Origin: Escherichia phage vB_EcoM-Sa45lw
Direction: 5' to 3' (one strand)
Sequence record: MK977694.1
DNA length: 64,000 nt
Shown: piece by piece, positions 15,752 to 21,987 of the stretch
Position numbering within the stretch: position 1 is the stretch's first letter
How the letters are laid out: every line of letters begins with the position of its first letter
Notes under the pieces: model-generated
What the model was told of the DNA's origin: nothing
The model's input: the letters and a program-made list of their open reading frames with translations, nothing else
Databases searched by the model: none
Made by a program: the position numbers and the translations under genes

Positions 15752-15755
15752 CAAT

Positions 15756-15778
15756 GGGGACCGAAAGGTCCCCATGTT
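15756..15778. terminator. Bidirectional terminator between 54 and alt.-3
   Basis: GGGGACC-gaaa-GGTCCCC hairpin followed by T-run. Confidence 0.65.
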
Positions 15779-15779
15779 T

Positions 15780-16070
15780 TTATTTACGGAATGAAATAAA
15801 AGCAGCAACTGAAGCAACAGAGGTTTCTTCAATATAAACCTCAATTTTTACCGGAGCTTCTGACTCAAATTTACCTGTTACTACACCCTGAAAAATACTT
15901 TCAGTCTGTTCTGGCTTTGAAAAATTTTCAGAAGGAAAAATTCCAAACTTTTTATCGGTTCCGAAAATTTTAATAAATTCATCGTAAACTGCTTCATTAA
16001 AAGCATTATCAGCAGGAATAACGCCTTCAACTACAAGTTCTTGACCTAAAAAGCGCAAAGAAGATTTCAT
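15780..16070 (-). CDS. Hypothetical protein (alt.-3 position)
   Basis: 96 aa ORF; strong SD GAGGA and early promoter upstream. Confidence 0.6.
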   Translation of the reverse strand: MKSSLRFLGQELVVEGVIPADNAFNEAVYDEFIKIFGTDKKFGIFPSENFSKPEQTESIFQGVVTGKFESEAPVKIEVYIEETSVASVAAFISFRK

Positions 16071-16077
16071 TTTGTGT

Positions 16078-16131
16078 TCCTCATGTTATGTCAGTAAGAC
16101 TACTATAACACAACACGAGGGACTTGTAAAC
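16078..16131 (-). repeat. 54 bp promoter-leader repeat, copy 1
   Basis: Identical to 31872-31925. Confidence 0.9.
16102..16131 (-). promoter_or_regulatory. Early promoter (GTTTACA, 17 bp, TATAGT) upstream of alt.-3
   Basis: sigma70-like hexamers with TG-extended -10; part of a 54 bp block repeated at 31872-31925. Confidence 0.6.
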
Positions 16132-18188
16132 TACATTTTGAACTTTTTAGACATTCCGTTAATGTTAACCAAAGAAGCTAAGATTTGAGAAACTTCGTTT
16201 TCCTCTTCTTTTGATTCTTCTACAAGGAATTGATTAAATCCAGCCATTGGACGAACTTCACCAGTTTCCATTAGATGGTCGCCATCATATACTGATTCTT
16301 CTAATTGTTCAGAAGGAGGAACGATTGTACCTTCGATTAGATACTTGTTATAAGCAGTTTCTTTCATAAAGTAAGTACTTACTTTATTAATCTTCAGTAA
16401 AATTCCACGTGGTAGAATAACTTCAGCTTCTGATGGAAATCCTGATAAATGACCCGGAACGATAACTTTAACTCGTTCAGCTCCTTTAATTACCATACCC
16501 ACGCTAGTTTCAGCATCTTCATTAGCATATGTAGAATGACTACCCATATGCATCAAATCTTCTGCATCAACGGAACCTTCTCCTTCACCAGAAAATACTG
16601 CTCCGGAATCATCTAAGGCCATATAATTTTTACCATACTCACCAAAGATATTTGGTTTAAGTGATGTAGATACGAAGTTCTTGAAATAGAACATTTTATT
16701 TTCAATGTTATGACGCAAAGTTTTAAAAGTAACTTCTTGTCCACGGTAAAGTGTAGTTCCTGGAGGAAGAACTGAACCTTTAGCAAACGCAGAATCCATA
16801 GTCTCGATGTGCTTAATAGCGCGCTCCATGTATTCTTCACGTGTAGAATCAGGTTTACCTAAAAGGAATGAGTTCATTTCAACATACGAATCTGCACAAT
16901 AATCTTCAATTACATCAGATTCAGCCTGAGTCAATCCTTTTGGAGTTACTTCAGTGCTTGCATATTCATACGCCTGAGCAGCGGATTCATCAATTAATTT
17001 ATAAATGCCATTCATGACAAATTGAATAATAGCTGTCTTTTCATCTGGCGTAGCTTTAGAACCTTTAACTAAATCATTGACAATTTTCTTAATAACATCA
17101 AAGCTATTAGAAATATTAATGTCAGCAAGATCGCTTAAAATTTTATCAGTTTTATAATCAAAGAATTCTTTATTCTTTAAATATTCTTGAGAACCTTGAT
17201 ATGTTATATCGCTCTGCAGCTTGATAGATGGATCACGTAAACGTGCATGGGCTAATGCAATATGATTTCGGAAGCTTTCTAGTTCATAATCACTAGATTT
17301 AAAACGAGAAGCACTCCTCATACCACCGATAGCTCCTTTGCCGAAGTTTGAACCAATCTGAATAACGCCAGAGTTCATTGGTCCTTCTGCTTTATATACC
17401 GGAACTTTAGATTCAAACTCTTGATATTTCTTAGCAGCAAAGCTATCACCCTGAAGTGAAGCATCAACAGTAGAATATTGAGCTTGTGCTGCTAATCGAC
17501 GACTAATTTTAGTTTTCTGAATAACAGCTTGATCCGTACGCTTATCATTTTCTAAAGCAATAGAAGCAGCAACTGCGACAGCTTTAGGAACAGCATTACC
17601 TGTTTTAACGTCTACATAAACATCACCGACTTTCGATTCAACTTTTGTGAATAACTCAGTTGAAATAGGAGGTACACCTGGAATGTCTTCTAAATTGGCA
17701 TTTTTACGGTAAACCATAATATATGCATATTTCTTATCATAGTCCCAGATTTCCTTTAAAAGAACATATCGACCTGCTCCTTTAGTACGTACTAAACGGT
17801 CAGCAATAACTTGCATTTGACGAGCAGCGCCATTTGTTTTACTTTTTAGTACGCGGAATAGGCATGCATCAATTTTATACTGTTTCATTGTTTGAAGAGC
17901 AGTATCAAAAACCGCATTAATGACACCAATTGGATTTCCACCCAAGTTTTTAAGCTTAACTAACGATAATTTCTCATTAACACCTATCATTACGATATGC
18001 ATCATTTTGTCGCCTGGCTTAACGTTTTTATTCGTATCACCGCCAGAGGTGTATGTACAAAATCGAAATCCAGGAAGAACGCTTTCTTCACCGGCTTGAA
18101 TAGCAAAAATTTGAGGTATTTTATGCTTAGGATTTAAGTTAACAACCGGCGCCGAAGCGCCGTCAAATAATTCTGTAATAAGTTCCAT
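16131..18188 (-). CDS. Alt-like ADP-ribosyltransferase paralog (intact)
   Basis: 685 aa; N-terminus MELITELFD as in Alt; ART motifs YRGQ, FVSTSL, EVILPRG. Confidence 0.85.
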   Translation of the reverse strand: MELITELFDGASAPVVNLNPKHKIPQIFAIQAGEESVLPGFRFCTYTSGGDTNKNVKPGDKMMHIVMIGVNEKLSLVKLKNLGGNPIGVINAVFDTALQTMKQYKIDACLFRVLKSKTNGAARQMQVIADRLVRTKGAGRYVLLKEIWDYDKKYAYIMVYRKNANLEDIPGVPPISTELFTKVESKVGDVYVDVKTGNAVPKAVAVAASIALENDKRTDQAVIQKTKISRRLAAQAQYSTVDASLQGDSFAAKKYQEFESKVPVYKAEGPMNSGVIQIGSNFGKGAIGGMRSASRFKSSDYELESFRNHIALAHARLRDPSIKLQSDITYQGSQEYLKNKEFFDYKTDKILSDLADINISNSFDVIKKIVNDLVKGSKATPDEKTAIIQFVMNGIYKLIDESAAQAYEYASTEVTPKGLTQAESDVIEDYCADSYVEMNSFLLGKPDSTREEYMERAIKHIETMDSAFAKGSVLPPGTTLYRGQEVTFKTLRHNIENKMFYFKNFVSTSLKPNIFGEYGKNYMALDDSGAVFSGEGEGSVDAEDLMHMGSHSTYANEDAETSVGMVIKGAERVKVIVPGHLSGFPSEAEVILPRGILLKINKVSTYFMKETAYNKYLIEGTIVPPSEQLEESVYDGDHLMETGEVRPMAGFNQFLVEESKEEENEVSQILASLVNINGMSKKFKM

Positions 18189-18191
18189 GAT

Positions 18192-20285
18192 TTATCCTTG
18201 AACGAACTTGTAAGGCATGTTTGTAATATCTATGCAAGACGCAATAATTCCAAGAGATGATTCTACTTTCTGTTTAATATTTGATGAAACAAATGATGCA
18301 AAGTCAACTCTGTCTTCTATTTCAATATCACCTGTCATTGCAACCAATTCACCAGTTTCCATTAAATGGTCTCCATCATAGATTACCGATTCGGTGAGCT
18401 CTTCCGTGGTCATAACTTCAGCTTGAATGAGTTTTGTATTATTAGATGTTGTTCCGTCATTATTAGAAGCATCAGTTATTTTATTAACCTTGACCATCAA
18501 TCCGCGTGGTAGAATAACTTCAGCTTCTGTTGCTATTCCGAGACTTCCTGGATATACAACATTAACTTTATGAGCTCCATCAATTGCCCATCCTATTTGA
18601 ACTTTAACATATTCAGGATTTTCTTTATACGCTCTTATTTCGTTTGGATTAATAGTTATTCCTTCTTCATTTTTATCAACTGTTAATTCGTTACGAGCTT
18701 CTGGTTCTAAAAGACCAATACCAGCATGTGTGATTCCAAAACGTCCAAAAATGATAGGAGTTAAAGAAGTAGATACAAAATTTCTGAAGTAGAACACTTT
18801 ATTTTTAACTAACGCTTCATATATAGGAGCAGTCATACTTTGAGCACGATAAACTGTAATGCCTTCTGGTATACGGTCACCATTTTCAAAAGCTGAATCT
18901 AAGTTATTTATAGCAGATTCAATTTCTTTTTCACTCATTACATCGTATCGTTCTGGATTGTAACGACCTAAAAGAAGATTATTGATGTCAGTATATCCTG
19001 AACCGCAATATTCTCTAATGCCACGCTTTTGTGATGGAGTATATTTAGAACCATCGCGGGCAATAGTAATATCAATCATTGGACCAGCACCAATTCCAGA
19101 AAAACTGTAAATCATTCGTTTGAGGAATTTAGTTTTTGCTGCGTTCCAGGAATTTTTAGTTATTTCTTCCCAGACTTCATCTGGTTGTCCTTTACGATTT
19201 TTATTATGATTAGCAAGCCATTTATCTTTATAATCTTCAAAGAATTGATTTACAGCTGCTGCGTATTTCTCTAAACATTTTATTGAAGTAGTTGGTTCAT
19301 TTTTAATTGCATTAAAAATTACTTCTTTAATTTTTTCTGAAACTTCACCGACTTGACTCATTGGAAAGAATTTATAATCATAGTGAAGTTCATCTGCCGT
19401 TCCTTCAGCAATAATTTTTGCTGCCTTTGTTTTAGAAGCTAATGAATTAATTCCAATTTTCATTTCTTCTGCTTCGGGAATTAAAGGTGCAGTAGCTGGT
19501 TTATTAAAATTAGCTGCTGTAGATTCATACTTCTGGAATAATTCACTTTCAAATCTAGAAGATTCCAATGACTGACTTTGTGCAATTGCTCTACGGGAAA
19601 TTTTAACTTTAACGATTACGGCTTGGTCAGAACGTTTATCATTTTCTTGTGCAATAGATGCAGCAATTGCCTCATTTTTGGTTACTTGAGCTCCAGTATC
19701 TTTATTGATATAAACATCACCGACCTTCGATTCAACTTTAGTAAAAAGCTCGGTGCTAATTTCTGGAACTCCTGGAATGTCTTCTAGTGATACATTTTTA
19801 CGATGTATAAGAATATATGCATACTTTTTATCGTAATCCCAGAGTTCCTTAAGAAGGACGTATCTGCCACCTGAACGACTGCGGATGAGTCTATCAGCAA
19901 TAAGTTGAATTTGTCGAGCTTGACCGGCGGTTTTAGACTTAAGAATACGAAGCATGCAGGCATCAATTTTATATTGACGCATTGTTTGCATTGCAACAGT
20001 AAAAACTGAATTGATATAATTAATCGGGCTTGGACCAAGACCTTTTAATTTAGCAATTGAACCTTTAGCAGTTAATGTAAAAGGAACAATGTGCATCATT
20101 TTATCGCCCATCTTTAAATCACGATTAGTATCACCTCCAGATGTATAGGTACATAAACGAAAGCCTGGTTGTTCAATTGCATCATCAACATGAACTGAAA
20201 AAATTTGTGGTATTTTCTTCTTTGGATTTAAGTTTGTAATCGGAAGAGTAGTATCTTCGTCAAATAATTCTGTAATAAGTTCCAT
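18192..20285 (-). CDS. alt: Alt ADP-ribosyltransferase (capsid-packaged, modifies host RNA polymerase)
   Basis: 697 aa; MELITELFDEDTTLPITNL...; ART motifs YRAQ, FVSTSL, EVILPRG. Confidence 0.92.
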   Translation of the reverse strand: MELITELFDEDTTLPITNLNPKKKIPQIFSVHVDDAIEQPGFRLCTYTSGGDTNRDLKMGDKMMHIVPFTLTAKGSIAKLKGLGPSPINYINSVFTVAMQTMRQYKIDACMLRILKSKTAGQARQIQLIADRLIRSRSGGRYVLLKELWDYDKKYAYILIHRKNVSLEDIPGVPEISTELFTKVESKVGDVYINKDTGAQVTKNEAIAASIAQENDKRSDQAVIVKVKISRRAIAQSQSLESSRFESELFQKYESTAANFNKPATAPLIPEAEEMKIGINSLASKTKAAKIIAEGTADELHYDYKFFPMSQVGEVSEKIKEVIFNAIKNEPTTSIKCLEKYAAAVNQFFEDYKDKWLANHNKNRKGQPDEVWEEITKNSWNAAKTKFLKRMIYSFSGIGAGPMIDITIARDGSKYTPSQKRGIREYCGSGYTDINNLLLGRYNPERYDVMSEKEIESAINNLDSAFENGDRIPEGITVYRAQSMTAPIYEALVKNKVFYFRNFVSTSLTPIIFGRFGITHAGIGLLEPEARNELTVDKNEEGITINPNEIRAYKENPEYVKVQIGWAIDGAHKVNVVYPGSLGIATEAEVILPRGLMVKVNKITDASNNDGTTSNNTKLIQAEVMTTEELTESVIYDGDHLMETGELVAMTGDIEIEDRVDFASFVSSNIKQKVESSLGIIASCIDITNMPYKFVQG

Positions 20286-20308
20286 GTTATCCTCTCTAGT
20301 GTTTATTC

Positions 20309-20316
20309 TATTTATA
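20309..20316 (-). promoter_or_regulatory. Late promoter (TATAAATA, - strand) for alt and the downstream alt paralog
   Basis: Plus TATTTATA, 24 bp upstream of the alt ATG. Confidence 0.6.
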
Positions 20317-20323
20317 AAATTAA

Positions 20324-20337
20324 AGGCCCGAAGGCCT
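20324..20337 (-). terminator. Terminator hairpin downstream of ORF 20342-20527
   Basis: AGGCC-cgaa-GGCCT with T-rich flank on - strand. Confidence 0.5.
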
Positions 20338-20341
20338 TTAA

Positions 20342-20527
20342 TTAATAGAGAGCTAAAAGAGTACGATATACTTCAAACTTTGGACCTTTTTCATATGGAT
20401 CAAATCTTTCCGTGAATTCATCATATGCTAGTTTATCTGGGAATTCAAGAATAACCTGCGATACCGCAGTGGAAACATCTCCACCTTCTTTTTGAGCCAC
20501 GACAATTGTTTCTAAGTAAGCTTTCAT
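20342..20527 (-). CDS. Hypothetical protein
   Basis: 61 aa ORF, ATGA-type overlap with gene 30 stop. Confidence 0.5.
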   Translation of the reverse strand: MKAYLETIVVAQKEGGDVSTAVSQVILEFPDKLAYDEFTERFDPYEKGPKFEVYRTLLALY

Positions 20528-21987
20528 AAACCAGTTACCTCATGAAAATCGCCAAATACATCTTCGAACGTATTAGCTTTAGTTTTATCTTCACGTAAAC
20601 GAATTGCAATTGGAAGAAATAGCTTAACGTAATCAGTACGTCCATCTAATTTTACCCAGCCGTTGCATTCGCACTCTAGAATTTTTCCAATATAATAATT
20701 TTGGTTTTCCATAATGCGAGTACGATCAAGTTCATGCGATTTTATACCGGCTTTATCTTTTAAGCCTGAACCAGCATTTACTTTAATTTTTCCACACTCT
20801 GATTCAAGAATGAAACCACCTGCTTTAGTAGGGTCTTTACGGTGAGGATAAATTCCTACAATTTTTAAATCAACATCAATTACTTCTTTAAATTTATAAA
20901 GATTTTTTGAACGAGCATTTTCCCATAATCCATCGATATTTTTGAGAATAATACCTTCAAGACCTTGGTCAATATACTTTTTATAAATTACCTTAGCTTC
21001 ATCTAGGTTATTTACTATCTGGTTTTCAATTAAAATTACTTTATCATAGCCTGATGTCATTTGTTCTAGTTTAGAAAAACGTACATCATATTTTAAACGA
21101 AATGCTGGAAGACCATATATTTCTACTAATGGAACATAGTCCCAGACCTGAAACTTCATGCATTGTGCTTCTTTTTCAGAAATGGTTCCCTTTAAAGATT
21201 TATTAGCGATTCCATTAGAAGTAGTACGTGATTCAGCTACTTCGGCGAATTCTTTAGCTTTACTAATTTCAGGATAAGCATCAAAAAGAAAATCTAGGCC
21301 TTCTGGTTCCTTTTCAACTTGCTCATGGTATACCAATTCGCCATCAATTAACACACCTTCTGGATGAATCTGGCGAGCTTCTGCAGTCATTTTGATTAAC
21401 TCTTCCTTGAGAAGATCTAATCCTAGATATTCATTACCAGCTCGTGATAAAAGACGAACATCATCTAATTCATCACCTCTGACTTCAGCAAAGCACCGAG
21501 CTCCATCAGCTTTTAACTGGGCAAAAGCTGGAAATTTGATATTCTTATTAATGCCTTTTTCATCATAAGAACTTGCCAGCATTTGAGGTTGTTCAGGAAT
21601 TAAACCTGGCCAAACTTTGTTTGCAATAGATACTGATGCACCACATTCAAGGTCTCGCATCATCACCCGACGCAAAACTTCAACATCATCTTTTTTACCG
21701 TCAGCAATATATCCAGTTAATTCCTCAATTGCCGCATTTCCGGTCAATTTCCGAGTAGCTAACGTGAATTCAATGAAGTCAAGCATATCGGTAAGAGTCA
21801 ACATTCCAAAACTCTGGGTAGTAATACCCGGTTTAGGCCATTTCTTGATATAATACTGTAACCCACGAGAATAAGTCAGACGATATACTCGTTTAAGCAA
21901 TTCATTATCTTTATTCTTTTCAAGAATTGCTTGCTTCTGCTTAGTTGAACCAATAGATGCTATTTCGTTCAGAATTTTAAGAATCAT
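20524..21987 (-). CDS. 30: ATP-dependent DNA ligase
   Basis: 487 aa; adenylation motif KADGARC; MILKILNEIASIGSTKQKQ matches T4 ligase. Confidence 0.97.
   Translation of the reverse strand: MILKILNEIASIGSTKQKQAILEKNKDNELLKRVYRLTYSRGLQYYIKKWPKPGITTQSFGMLTLTDMLDFIEFTLATRKLTGNAAIEELTGYIADGKKDDVEVLRRVMMRDLECGASVSIANKVWPGLIPEQPQMLASSYDEKGINKNIKFPAFAQLKADGARCFAEVRGDELDDVRLLSRAGNEYLGLDLLKEELIKMTAEARQIHPEGVLIDGELVYHEQVEKEPEGLDFLFDAYPEISKAKEFAEVAESRTTSNGIANKSLKGTISEKEAQCMKFQVWDYVPLVEIYGLPAFRLKYDVRFSKLEQMTSGYDKVILIENQIVNNLDEAKVIYKKYIDQGLEGIILKNIDGLWENARSKNLYKFKEVIDVDLKIVGIYPHRKDPTKAGGFILESECGKIKVNAGSGLKDKAGIKSHELDRTRIMENQNYYIGKILECECNGWVKLDGRTDYVKLFLPIAIRLREDKTKANTFEDVFGDFHEVTGL

Follow-up and report, generated by a model that had tools for sequence, protein, structure and literature searches.

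Two adjacent genes in the genome of Escherichia phage vB_EcoM-Sa45lw (MK977694.1) encode full-length relatives of Alt, the ADP-ribosyltransferase (ART) of bacteriophage T4. They lie in a 64,000-nt stretch of DNA, hereafter the window, which is a segment of a Tequatrovirus (T4-like) genome; the part from 15700 to 20600 matches Shigella phage Sf23 at 99.1% identity. We refer to the upstream gene, which occupies the alt locus, as A and to the downstream gene as B. Our analysis points to this locus probably being a late operon for two head-packaged Alt-type mono-ADP-ribosyltransferases. The genes and their motifs, the selection acting on them, the ART fold, synteny and phylogenetic distribution carry this reading. 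We infer from them that the genes are co-transcribed and that their products are packaged, processed, injected and enzymatically active, with distinct targets. T4 itself departs from this pattern, having lost its second gene to a frameshift and a 1699-bp deletion.

Two full-length Alt-type genes lie side by side

The initial annotation of this DNA had described two adjacent paralogs of 697 and 685 residues, each starting with MELITELFD, and the open reading frames (ORFs) of A and B confirm both the lengths and the shared N-terminus (Table 1). Over their full length the two proteins are 41% identical in pairwise comparison (E 6e-160). Both exceed the 23.4-bit gathering cut-off of Pfam PF03496 (ADPrib_exo_Tox), A with 129.9 bits (E 9.6e-38) and B with 71.5 bits (E 7.5e-20), and PHROG 802 ("Alt-like RNA polymerase ADP-ribosyltransferase") spans each of them end to end, covering residues 1-685 of B at E 2e-256. 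Homologs of B are given PF26846 together with PF03496 in their source database; NCBIfam holds no family for A or B. The catalytic signatures noticed at the outset, YR[AG]Q, FVSTSL and EVILPRG, are present in A (YRAQ 479-482, FVSTSL 503-508, EAEVILPRG 587-595) as well as in B (YRGQ 481-484, FVSTSL 505-510, EAEVILPRG 587-595), and both proteins keep the R / S-T-S / E-x-E catalytic set.

The T4 alt locus has the same setting, between gene 30/alt.1 and alt.-3/gene 54, with the same late promoter and leader. T4 Alt also shares with A and B the succession of N-terminal domain, helical region, R-S-ExE ART domain and propeptide, including the ITE-6 and L-x-E motifs, and is 41% identical to B overall. 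A is 70.6% identical to T4 Alt, and that average conceals a strongly uneven distribution: identity is at least 97% over residues 1-245 and falls to about 20-27% over residues 250-440, while the ART domain stands at 57-82% and the C-terminus at 87-95%. A is a mosaic relative to T4 Alt and no plain ortholog. Among more distant systems, the C3-like and binary toxins (C3bot, Vis, CDTa, iota Ia and VIP2) share the fold and the R / S-T-S / E-x-E site at 15-20% sequence identity; unlike Alt, they are secreted bacterial toxins with neither a phage-head targeting domain nor gp21 processing. T4 ModA and ModB belong to the same R-S-E clade of ARTs and come from the same phage group (PMC5512222), but they differ in being small, early and unpackaged, and they have neither the N-terminal domain nor the propeptides.

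The downstream gene is constrained and keeps an intact active site

Selection and conservation were assessed in ten phages: the window phage, RB14, RB3, T2, ime09, phiD1, Sf25, KIT03, EC121 and VIPECOOM02. All ten carry uninterrupted ORFs of 2094 nt (A) and 2058 nt (B). With synonymous divergence among them reaching 0.26, the mean pairwise ratio of nonsynonymous to synonymous substitution rates (dN/dS) is 0.049 for A and lower still, at 0.036, for B. Every part of B falls below 0.08, with values of 0.014 for the N-terminal part, 0.076 for the middle, 0.030 for the ART domain and 0.010 for the C-terminal part. Residues R482, S507, S509, E587 and E589 of B are invariant in an alignment of 19 homologs that reaches down to 42% identity. 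As a protein-coding gene B is under constraint, and its ART active site, of the arginine type, is intact; an E-x-E, as opposed to a Q-x-E, in the ADP-ribosylating turn-turn (ARTT) loop predicts arginine specificity. The initial annotation had considered the second ART probably functional, a view that strong purifying selection and the intact catalytic set support, and B is almost certainly a working enzyme as predicted from its sequence.

The fold leads to the same families. An AlphaFold2 (AF2) model of B has a mean predicted local distance difference test score (pLDDT) of 73, with residues 250-625 mostly between 80 and 92. Searched with Foldseek, the model recovered Vis, C3bot, CDTa, VIP2 and iota toxin with E values of 2e-8 to 5e-5, a probability of 1.00 and target-normalised template modelling (TM) scores of about 0.6. 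A PDB sequence search with B gave no match at E<=0.01. Weak matches, to Clostridioides difficile CdtA and to iota Ia, came from A only; in the alignment to CdtA, VYR480 of A falls on the VYR with the catalytic Arg and E587-A-E589 on the catalytic E-Y-E.

B carries putative packaging and processing features like those of Alt

T4 Alt is cut twice by the prohead protease gp21, after ITE-6 and after LTE-619 as determined by mass spectrometry, with the removal of 6 N-terminal and 63 C-terminal residues (PMC5694885, PMC9026906). Cleavage-type motifs occur in A at ITE-6 and LTE-632, and in B at ITE-6 (MELITE followed by L) and LEE-631 (LEE631 followed by SVYDGDHLMETGE). The initial reading of the MELITELFD start as a protease-processing region agrees with this arrangement, the first six residues ending at the ITE-6 site known to be cut in T4 Alt (PMC5694885). 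Directly after the C-terminal site both A and B continue with SV(I)YDGDHLMETGE, and across the 19 homologs of B the residues E6, E631 and Y-D-G-D...E-x-G-E are invariant. The segment of B after residue 629 (about 57 residues) is disordered in the AF2 model, with pLDDT below 50, and by homology to T4 Alt the propeptide is predicted to be removed by gp21. The description of B as divergent in its central and C-terminal region consequently needs to be divided: the middle is divergent, but the extreme C-terminus is not simply so, as it keeps a conserved second protease site and the propeptide motif.

Because B combines the conserved N-terminal domain with both cleavage motifs and the propeptide motif, there is good indirect evidence that it would enter the prohead and be processed like Alt. 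By analogy with Alt, it would then probably be injected into the host with the DNA. The proteomic detections of ARTs that our literature search brought up come from single-copy Mosigvirus and Klebsiella phages only.

Modelled alone with AF2, the N-terminal domain reached a pLDDT of 81.6 and a predicted TM score (pTM) of 0.80. The best structural neighbours of the Alt N-terminal domain model are mostly GNAT acetyltransferases, at marginal scores, and a profile search of Pfam and the PDB with this domain gave nothing at E<=10, so that the GNAT likeness is without sequence-level support. We regard a GNAT-like fold as a weak lead suggested by the model. An invariant K117-x-x-G120-x-A loop lies between a strand and a helix, at the position expected for the coenzyme A-binding motif of GNAT proteins.

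A putative late promoter and a conserved junction suggest a single operon

The octamer TATAAATA precedes A, and the leader that follows it is kept, like the octamer itself, in all ten phages and T4. The AT-rich window is not enriched in this octamer beyond chance, with 12 copies where 9.4 would be expected; we assign it as the promoter of the operon because of its position, its conservation and the late timing of T4 alt, whose mRNA and protein appear late (PMC9697503), and not because of motif statistics. The stem-loop directly upstream of it is a probable terminator of the ligase/alt.1 transcript. Just before alt, at positions 20283-20290, the window phage reads ATAACATG where its nine relatives and T4 read ATATGATG, and it therefore lacks the alternative in-frame ATG that the others have one codon upstream.

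Between the genes, the stop codon of A (TAA, 18192-18194), the spacer ATC and the start codon of B (ATG, 18186-18188) follow one another as the initial annotation had implied in giving a gap of 3 bp, and an AAGGA Shine-Dalgarno sequence lies within the last codons of A. Taken as the 30 nt before the B start and the first two codons of B, this junction is 100% identical in the ten phages and in T4, where it joins alt to alt.-1. Such an arrangement is consistent with translational coupling. No terminator-like site was seen between A and B. The simplest reading of these sequences would be a single late operon with translational coupling.

The earlier proposal that both genes share one late promoter at 20309-20316 agrees with the motif, position, synteny and conservation of this octamer; that it is the only promoter is not provable from sequence, and an internal TATAAATA does exist on the coding strand within A. 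This second octamer is present in eight of the ten phages and has been lost through a synonymous change (GCT>GCG) in the other two, and it is therefore unlikely to be required.

T4 holds the stump of a full-length second gene

The second copy in T4 had been described as the fragments alt.-1 and alt.-2, and both the T4 annotation and alignment to B confirm this. Next to alt (682 aa, NP_049811), the T4 record lists alt.-1 (61 aa, NP_049810) and alt.-2 (67 aa, NP_049809) and calls them remnants, duplicated from the first part of alt. They correspond to residues 1-56 of B at 94.6% amino acid identity (alt.-1) and to residues 62-116 at 98.2% (alt.-2). Exactly two lesions distinguish the T4 remnant from B: a 1-nt deletion in a run of A nucleotides, which splits the frame, and the 1699-bp deletion, whose junction falls within the 9-bp direct repeat CTAAAAAGT. 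Both copies of the repeat are present in the window phage. It follows from these two lesions that T4 holds the stump of a full-length gene and not a partial duplication, and the note in the T4 record understates the extent of the loss.

Escherichia phage Elenatom has a frameshifting 14-nt deletion between TTGATG repeats that interrupts B at codon 540, which lies between its STS and ExE motifs; B was thus lost a second time independently, or the deletion is an error of sequencing. T4 and Elenatom together suggested that a T4-type alt allele might be linked to loss of B. We rejected this idea on finding 118 records that combine a T4-type centre with B, identified as those in which a chimeric query (B-specific DNA joined to the T4-type alt centre) was covered to at least 80%; AR1, Sf21 and SH7 are examples.

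The tandem pair is a normal feature of the genus

B-specific DNA, that is, the part absent from T4, is present at a coverage of at least 80% in 401 phage records, and a tblastn search with B found 402 records with protein identities of at least 80%, among them T2, RB3, RB14, RB18, RB51 and RB68. By sampling the ranking at regular intervals we estimate that about 270 records have an A-type centre together with B and that some 50-60 are T4-like without B. A scan of IMG/VR with B returned 5 loci only. B is 93-100% identical among Tequatrovirus pairs (T2, RB3, RB14, RB51, ime09, Sf25 and 6phi13), and the B protein of NiC89 is identical to that of the window. Both genes bear the RefSeq name "Alt-like RNA polymerase ADP-ribosyltransferase"; RB14 and ime09 label B "alt.-2", and the Sf25 record, with its gp48/gp49 pair, notes that B is distinct from Sf25gp49 and from T4 Alt. 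Shigella phage sb3 is annotated with three ART ORFs.

Duplications of alt in T4-like genomes were listed by Nolan et al. in 2006 (PMC1524935), and a 2026 paper reported a pair of paralogs, 43% identical, from a Tequatrovirus and proposed functional divergence and divergent targets (PMC13600099). The tandem pair is a normal, already annotated and published genomic feature of the genus, of which the window is one more member. To this our analysis adds the Dhakavirus pair, the separate histories of N-terminal domains and effector modules, and the weak GNAT-like N-terminal fold.

N-terminal domains and effector modules have different histories

The Dhakavirus phages JS10 and dhaeg carry a tandem alt pair at the equivalent position, with the same 3-nt spacing and the same motifs. 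Within one genome, A and B are 68% identical in the N-terminal domain, 21% in the middle and 36% in the ART domain, and the corresponding figures for the upstream and downstream genes of JS10 are 66%, 15% and 35%. Across the genera, A and the upstream gene of JS10 are 46%, 67% and 94% identical in the same three parts, and B and the downstream gene of JS10 are 47%, 45% and 57% identical. Neighbouring proteins of the window phage and JS10 provide the background, at 58-65%.

The downstream copy in JS10 is the positional ortholog of B; its ART domain lies near the background, and B looks to have been inherited vertically since before the genera split. The ART domain of A, at 94% against that same background, indicates a lateral exchange of the effector module, and A and the JS10 upstream gene have 80% nucleotide identity over nt 681-1943 of A. 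Together with the mosaic relation of A to T4 Alt, these comparisons of sequence indicate that the alt locus is polymorphic and that the A effector module has moved laterally. The N-terminal domains track their own genome, a pattern that would fit docking to the prohead core of that particular phage.

Recent gene conversion between A and B was considered as a cause of the N-terminal likeness and rejected. The first 28 nt of A (20258-20285) and of B (18161-18188) are identical in nucleotides, but beyond them the genes share only scattered 14-mers, in runs of no more than 25 nt. The identity of the 28 nt may reflect constraint on the translation start region or the propeptide, or a small conversion tract.

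Neighbouring elements

An early-type promoter downstream of the pair, kept in the ten phages and T4, serves alt.-3, which need therefore not depend on the late operon. RNA reading through from upstream forms a hairpin of about 20 bp (16076-16123, minus strand; -23 kcal/mol, z -3.8), with the Shine-Dalgarno sequence of alt.-3, GAGG, lying under its 3' arm; one-sided substitutions in RB14 and T2 preserve its pairing. Judged from this layout, early transcripts would begin within the hairpin and leave the Shine-Dalgarno sequence free, and late read-through from alt would mask it. The T4 genes e and soc follow a similar hairpin logic with the timing reversed relative to alt.-3. In the window alt.-3 is intact and as long as in T4, and its product is 58% identical to the JS10 homolog. 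C-terminal extension mutations in alt.-3 allow T4 to escape the CmdTAC defence system (PMC11618068). The hairpin between alt.-3 and gene 54 is a likely gene 54 terminator and possibly also ends the alt/alt.-3 transcripts.

Table 1. Features of the alt locus in the window, listed from upstream to downstream on the minus strand.
Feature	Position	Strand	Remarks
Gene 30, DNA ligase	20524-21987	minus
alt.1	20342-20527	minus	61 aa, Pfam Phage_blade
Stem-loop AAAGGCC-TTCG-GGCCTTT with T run	20322-20339	minus	-17.7 kcal/mol, z -3.45; kept in the ten phages and T4
TATAAATA, assigned T4-type late promoter of the alt operon	20309-20316	minus	23 nt before the ATG of A; identical in the ten phages and T4
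Shine-Dalgarno sequence of A, GAGAGGA	20290-20296	minus	read from sequence
Gene A (upstream, alt locus)	18192-20285	minus	ORF, 697 aa, 2094 nt; N-terminal domain, variable helical region, ART domain, C-terminal propeptide
A, N-terminal domain	19566-20285	minus	aa 1-240
A, predicted gp21 sites			after E6; after E632 (LTE)
Second TATAAATA, inside A	18905-18912	minus (coding strand)	717 nt before the start of B
A, catalytic R480	18846-18848	minus
A, catalytic S505-T-S507	18765-18773	minus
A, catalytic E587-A-E589	18519-18527	minus
A-B junction, AAGGATAAATCATG	18186-18200	minus	Shine-Dalgarno sequence, A stop, 3-nt spacer, B start
Gene B (downstream)	16131-18188	minus	ORF, 685 aa, 2058 nt
B, N-terminal domain	17469-18188	minus	aa 1-240; also present in Alt; proposed targeting module for the prohead core, weak GNAT-like fold
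B, predicted gp21 site after E6	18171-18173	minus
9-bp direct repeat CTAAAAAGT, copy 1	17841-17849	minus	left edge of the T4 deletion
B, ART catalytic domain	16314-16958	minus	aa ~411-625; PF03496 and Foldseek
B, catalytic R482	16743-16745	minus
B, catalytic S507-T-S509	16662-16670	minus
B, catalytic E587-A-E589	16422-16430	minus
B, predicted gp21 site after E631 (LEE)	16296-16298	minus
B, C-terminal propeptide	16134-16295	minus	aa 632-685, starts SVYDGDHLMETGE; homologous to the 63-aa T4 Alt propeptide; dN/dS 0.010
9-bp direct repeat CTAAAAAGT, copy 2	16142-16150	minus	right edge of the 1699-bp T4 deletion
Early-type promoter (G)TTTACA-17 nt-TATAGT, upstream TG	16102-16130	minus	10/12 match; overlaps the B stop codon
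alt.-3	15780-16070	minus	96 aa, DUF5498
Hairpin ATGGGGACC-GAAA-GGTCCCCAT	15754-15775		perfect 9-bp stem; between convergent genes 54 and alt.-3; T run on plus strand only
Baseplate genes 54 and 48	beyond alt.-3	plus

Discussion

If the locus works as we propose, gp55-RNA polymerase would start at TATAAATA upstream of A late in infection and transcribe both genes, and B would be translated by coupling over the 3-nt spacer. The N-terminal domain (aa 1-240) of each protein would dock in the prohead scaffolding core, followed by a helical region that varies and then by a C3/VIP2-like ART domain bearing a predicted arginine-specific R / S-T-S / E-x-E site. The protease gp21 would then cut after ITE, removing six residues from the N-terminus, and after L-x-E, removing about 54-65 from the C-terminus, and the mature enzymes would be ejected with the DNA to ADP-ribosylate arginines of host proteins ahead of any phage gene expression. 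T4 Alt is known to ADP-ribosylate Arg265 of the RNA polymerase alpha subunit (PMC2988021). As the effector modules of A and B are only 21% (helical) and 36% (ART) identical, the two proteins would most likely have different substrate ranges.

Several other explanations for the presence of B have to be weighed, two of which deny it an enzymatic role of its own. B could be a redundant duplicate without its own function, decaying towards the state seen in T4; the losses in T4 (frameshift and 1699-bp deletion) and in Elenatom (14-nt deletion), at least two if both are counted, and the fact that T4 grows well without B speak for this. We give it hardly any credence: the selection test contradicts it, dN/dS being lower for B than for alt, the ORF is intact in all ten phages, B-specific DNA persists in about 400 records, the catalytic and cleavage residues are invariant, and a positional ortholog has been kept in another genus. 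It is also very unlikely, if marginally less so, that B is a packaged but non-enzymatic partner of Alt with a structural or regulatory part, for instance in a heteromer formed through the similar N-terminal domains. Shared partners or mutual interaction could indeed explain why the N-terminal domains are alike within each genome, but invariance of R, S-T-S and E-x-E down to 42% identity and the low dN/dS of the ART domain point to a maintained active site.

The remaining alternatives accept B as an enzyme and differ over where it acts or how it is expressed. An active late ART that stays unpackaged and modifies host or phage proteins in the producing cell would agree with late expression, which fits either fate, and we found no proteomic report placing B in virions. 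This is nevertheless improbable, since B keeps the complete Alt N-terminal domain, 68% identical to that of A and at very low dN/dS, together with both gp21 motifs and the propeptide motif, features that are meaningful only inside a prohead. A separate question is whether A and B form one transcription unit at all, as B might be expressed mainly from the internal TATAAATA. T4 late (gp55) promoters need little beyond the octamer, and the copy inside A is an exact match on the coding strand, 717 nt upstream of B. We rate this arrangement as unlikely, although it deserves more weight than any of the foregoing: the octamer has been lost synonymously in two of the ten phages while B stays under selection, it occurs in the window about as often as chance would have it, and no terminator was seen between the genes.

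A late operon for two packaged Alt-type enzymes remains our preferred reading, and a number of points weigh against it. The alignments behind the AF2 models were shallow, with 19 and 8 sequences. Our literature search found no biochemistry, enzymology, genetics or virion proteomics of the B protein, and the sequence gives no pointer to the host proteins that B modifies. Only conservation patterns suggest that the N-terminal domain would serve in targeting. B is dispensable in the laboratory, to judge from T4, which is without it, and from the Elenatom frameshift, possibly a sequencing error. The internal octamer in A is a possible, unconserved late promoter that would give B a transcript of its own.

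A broader and more tentative picture, which we hold to be somewhat short of an even chance, is that the tandem locus is a cassette system. It would combine a phage-specific N-terminal targeting domain, kept alike in both genes of a genome and perhaps derived from a GNAT fold, and a conserved propeptide with interchangeable helical and ART modules that cross genera, and it would deliver two injected enzymes with different host targets, possibly including defence proteins.

Alt is the textbook example of an enzyme injected with phage DNA so as to reprogram the host, and all of its biochemistry comes from T4, which is itself without the second gene. Roughly 400 of its sequenced relatives, T2 among them, probably deliver two different ARTs as infection begins. 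The interest that remains lies in what the second, probably injected ART modifies and in how the locus has evolved by modules. Should the cassette picture prove true, decades of work on Alt would cover only half of the ancestral arsenal of injected ARTs. Finding the targets of B and of the non-T4 allele of A would widen the picture of immediate-early takeover and might reveal anti-defence activities.

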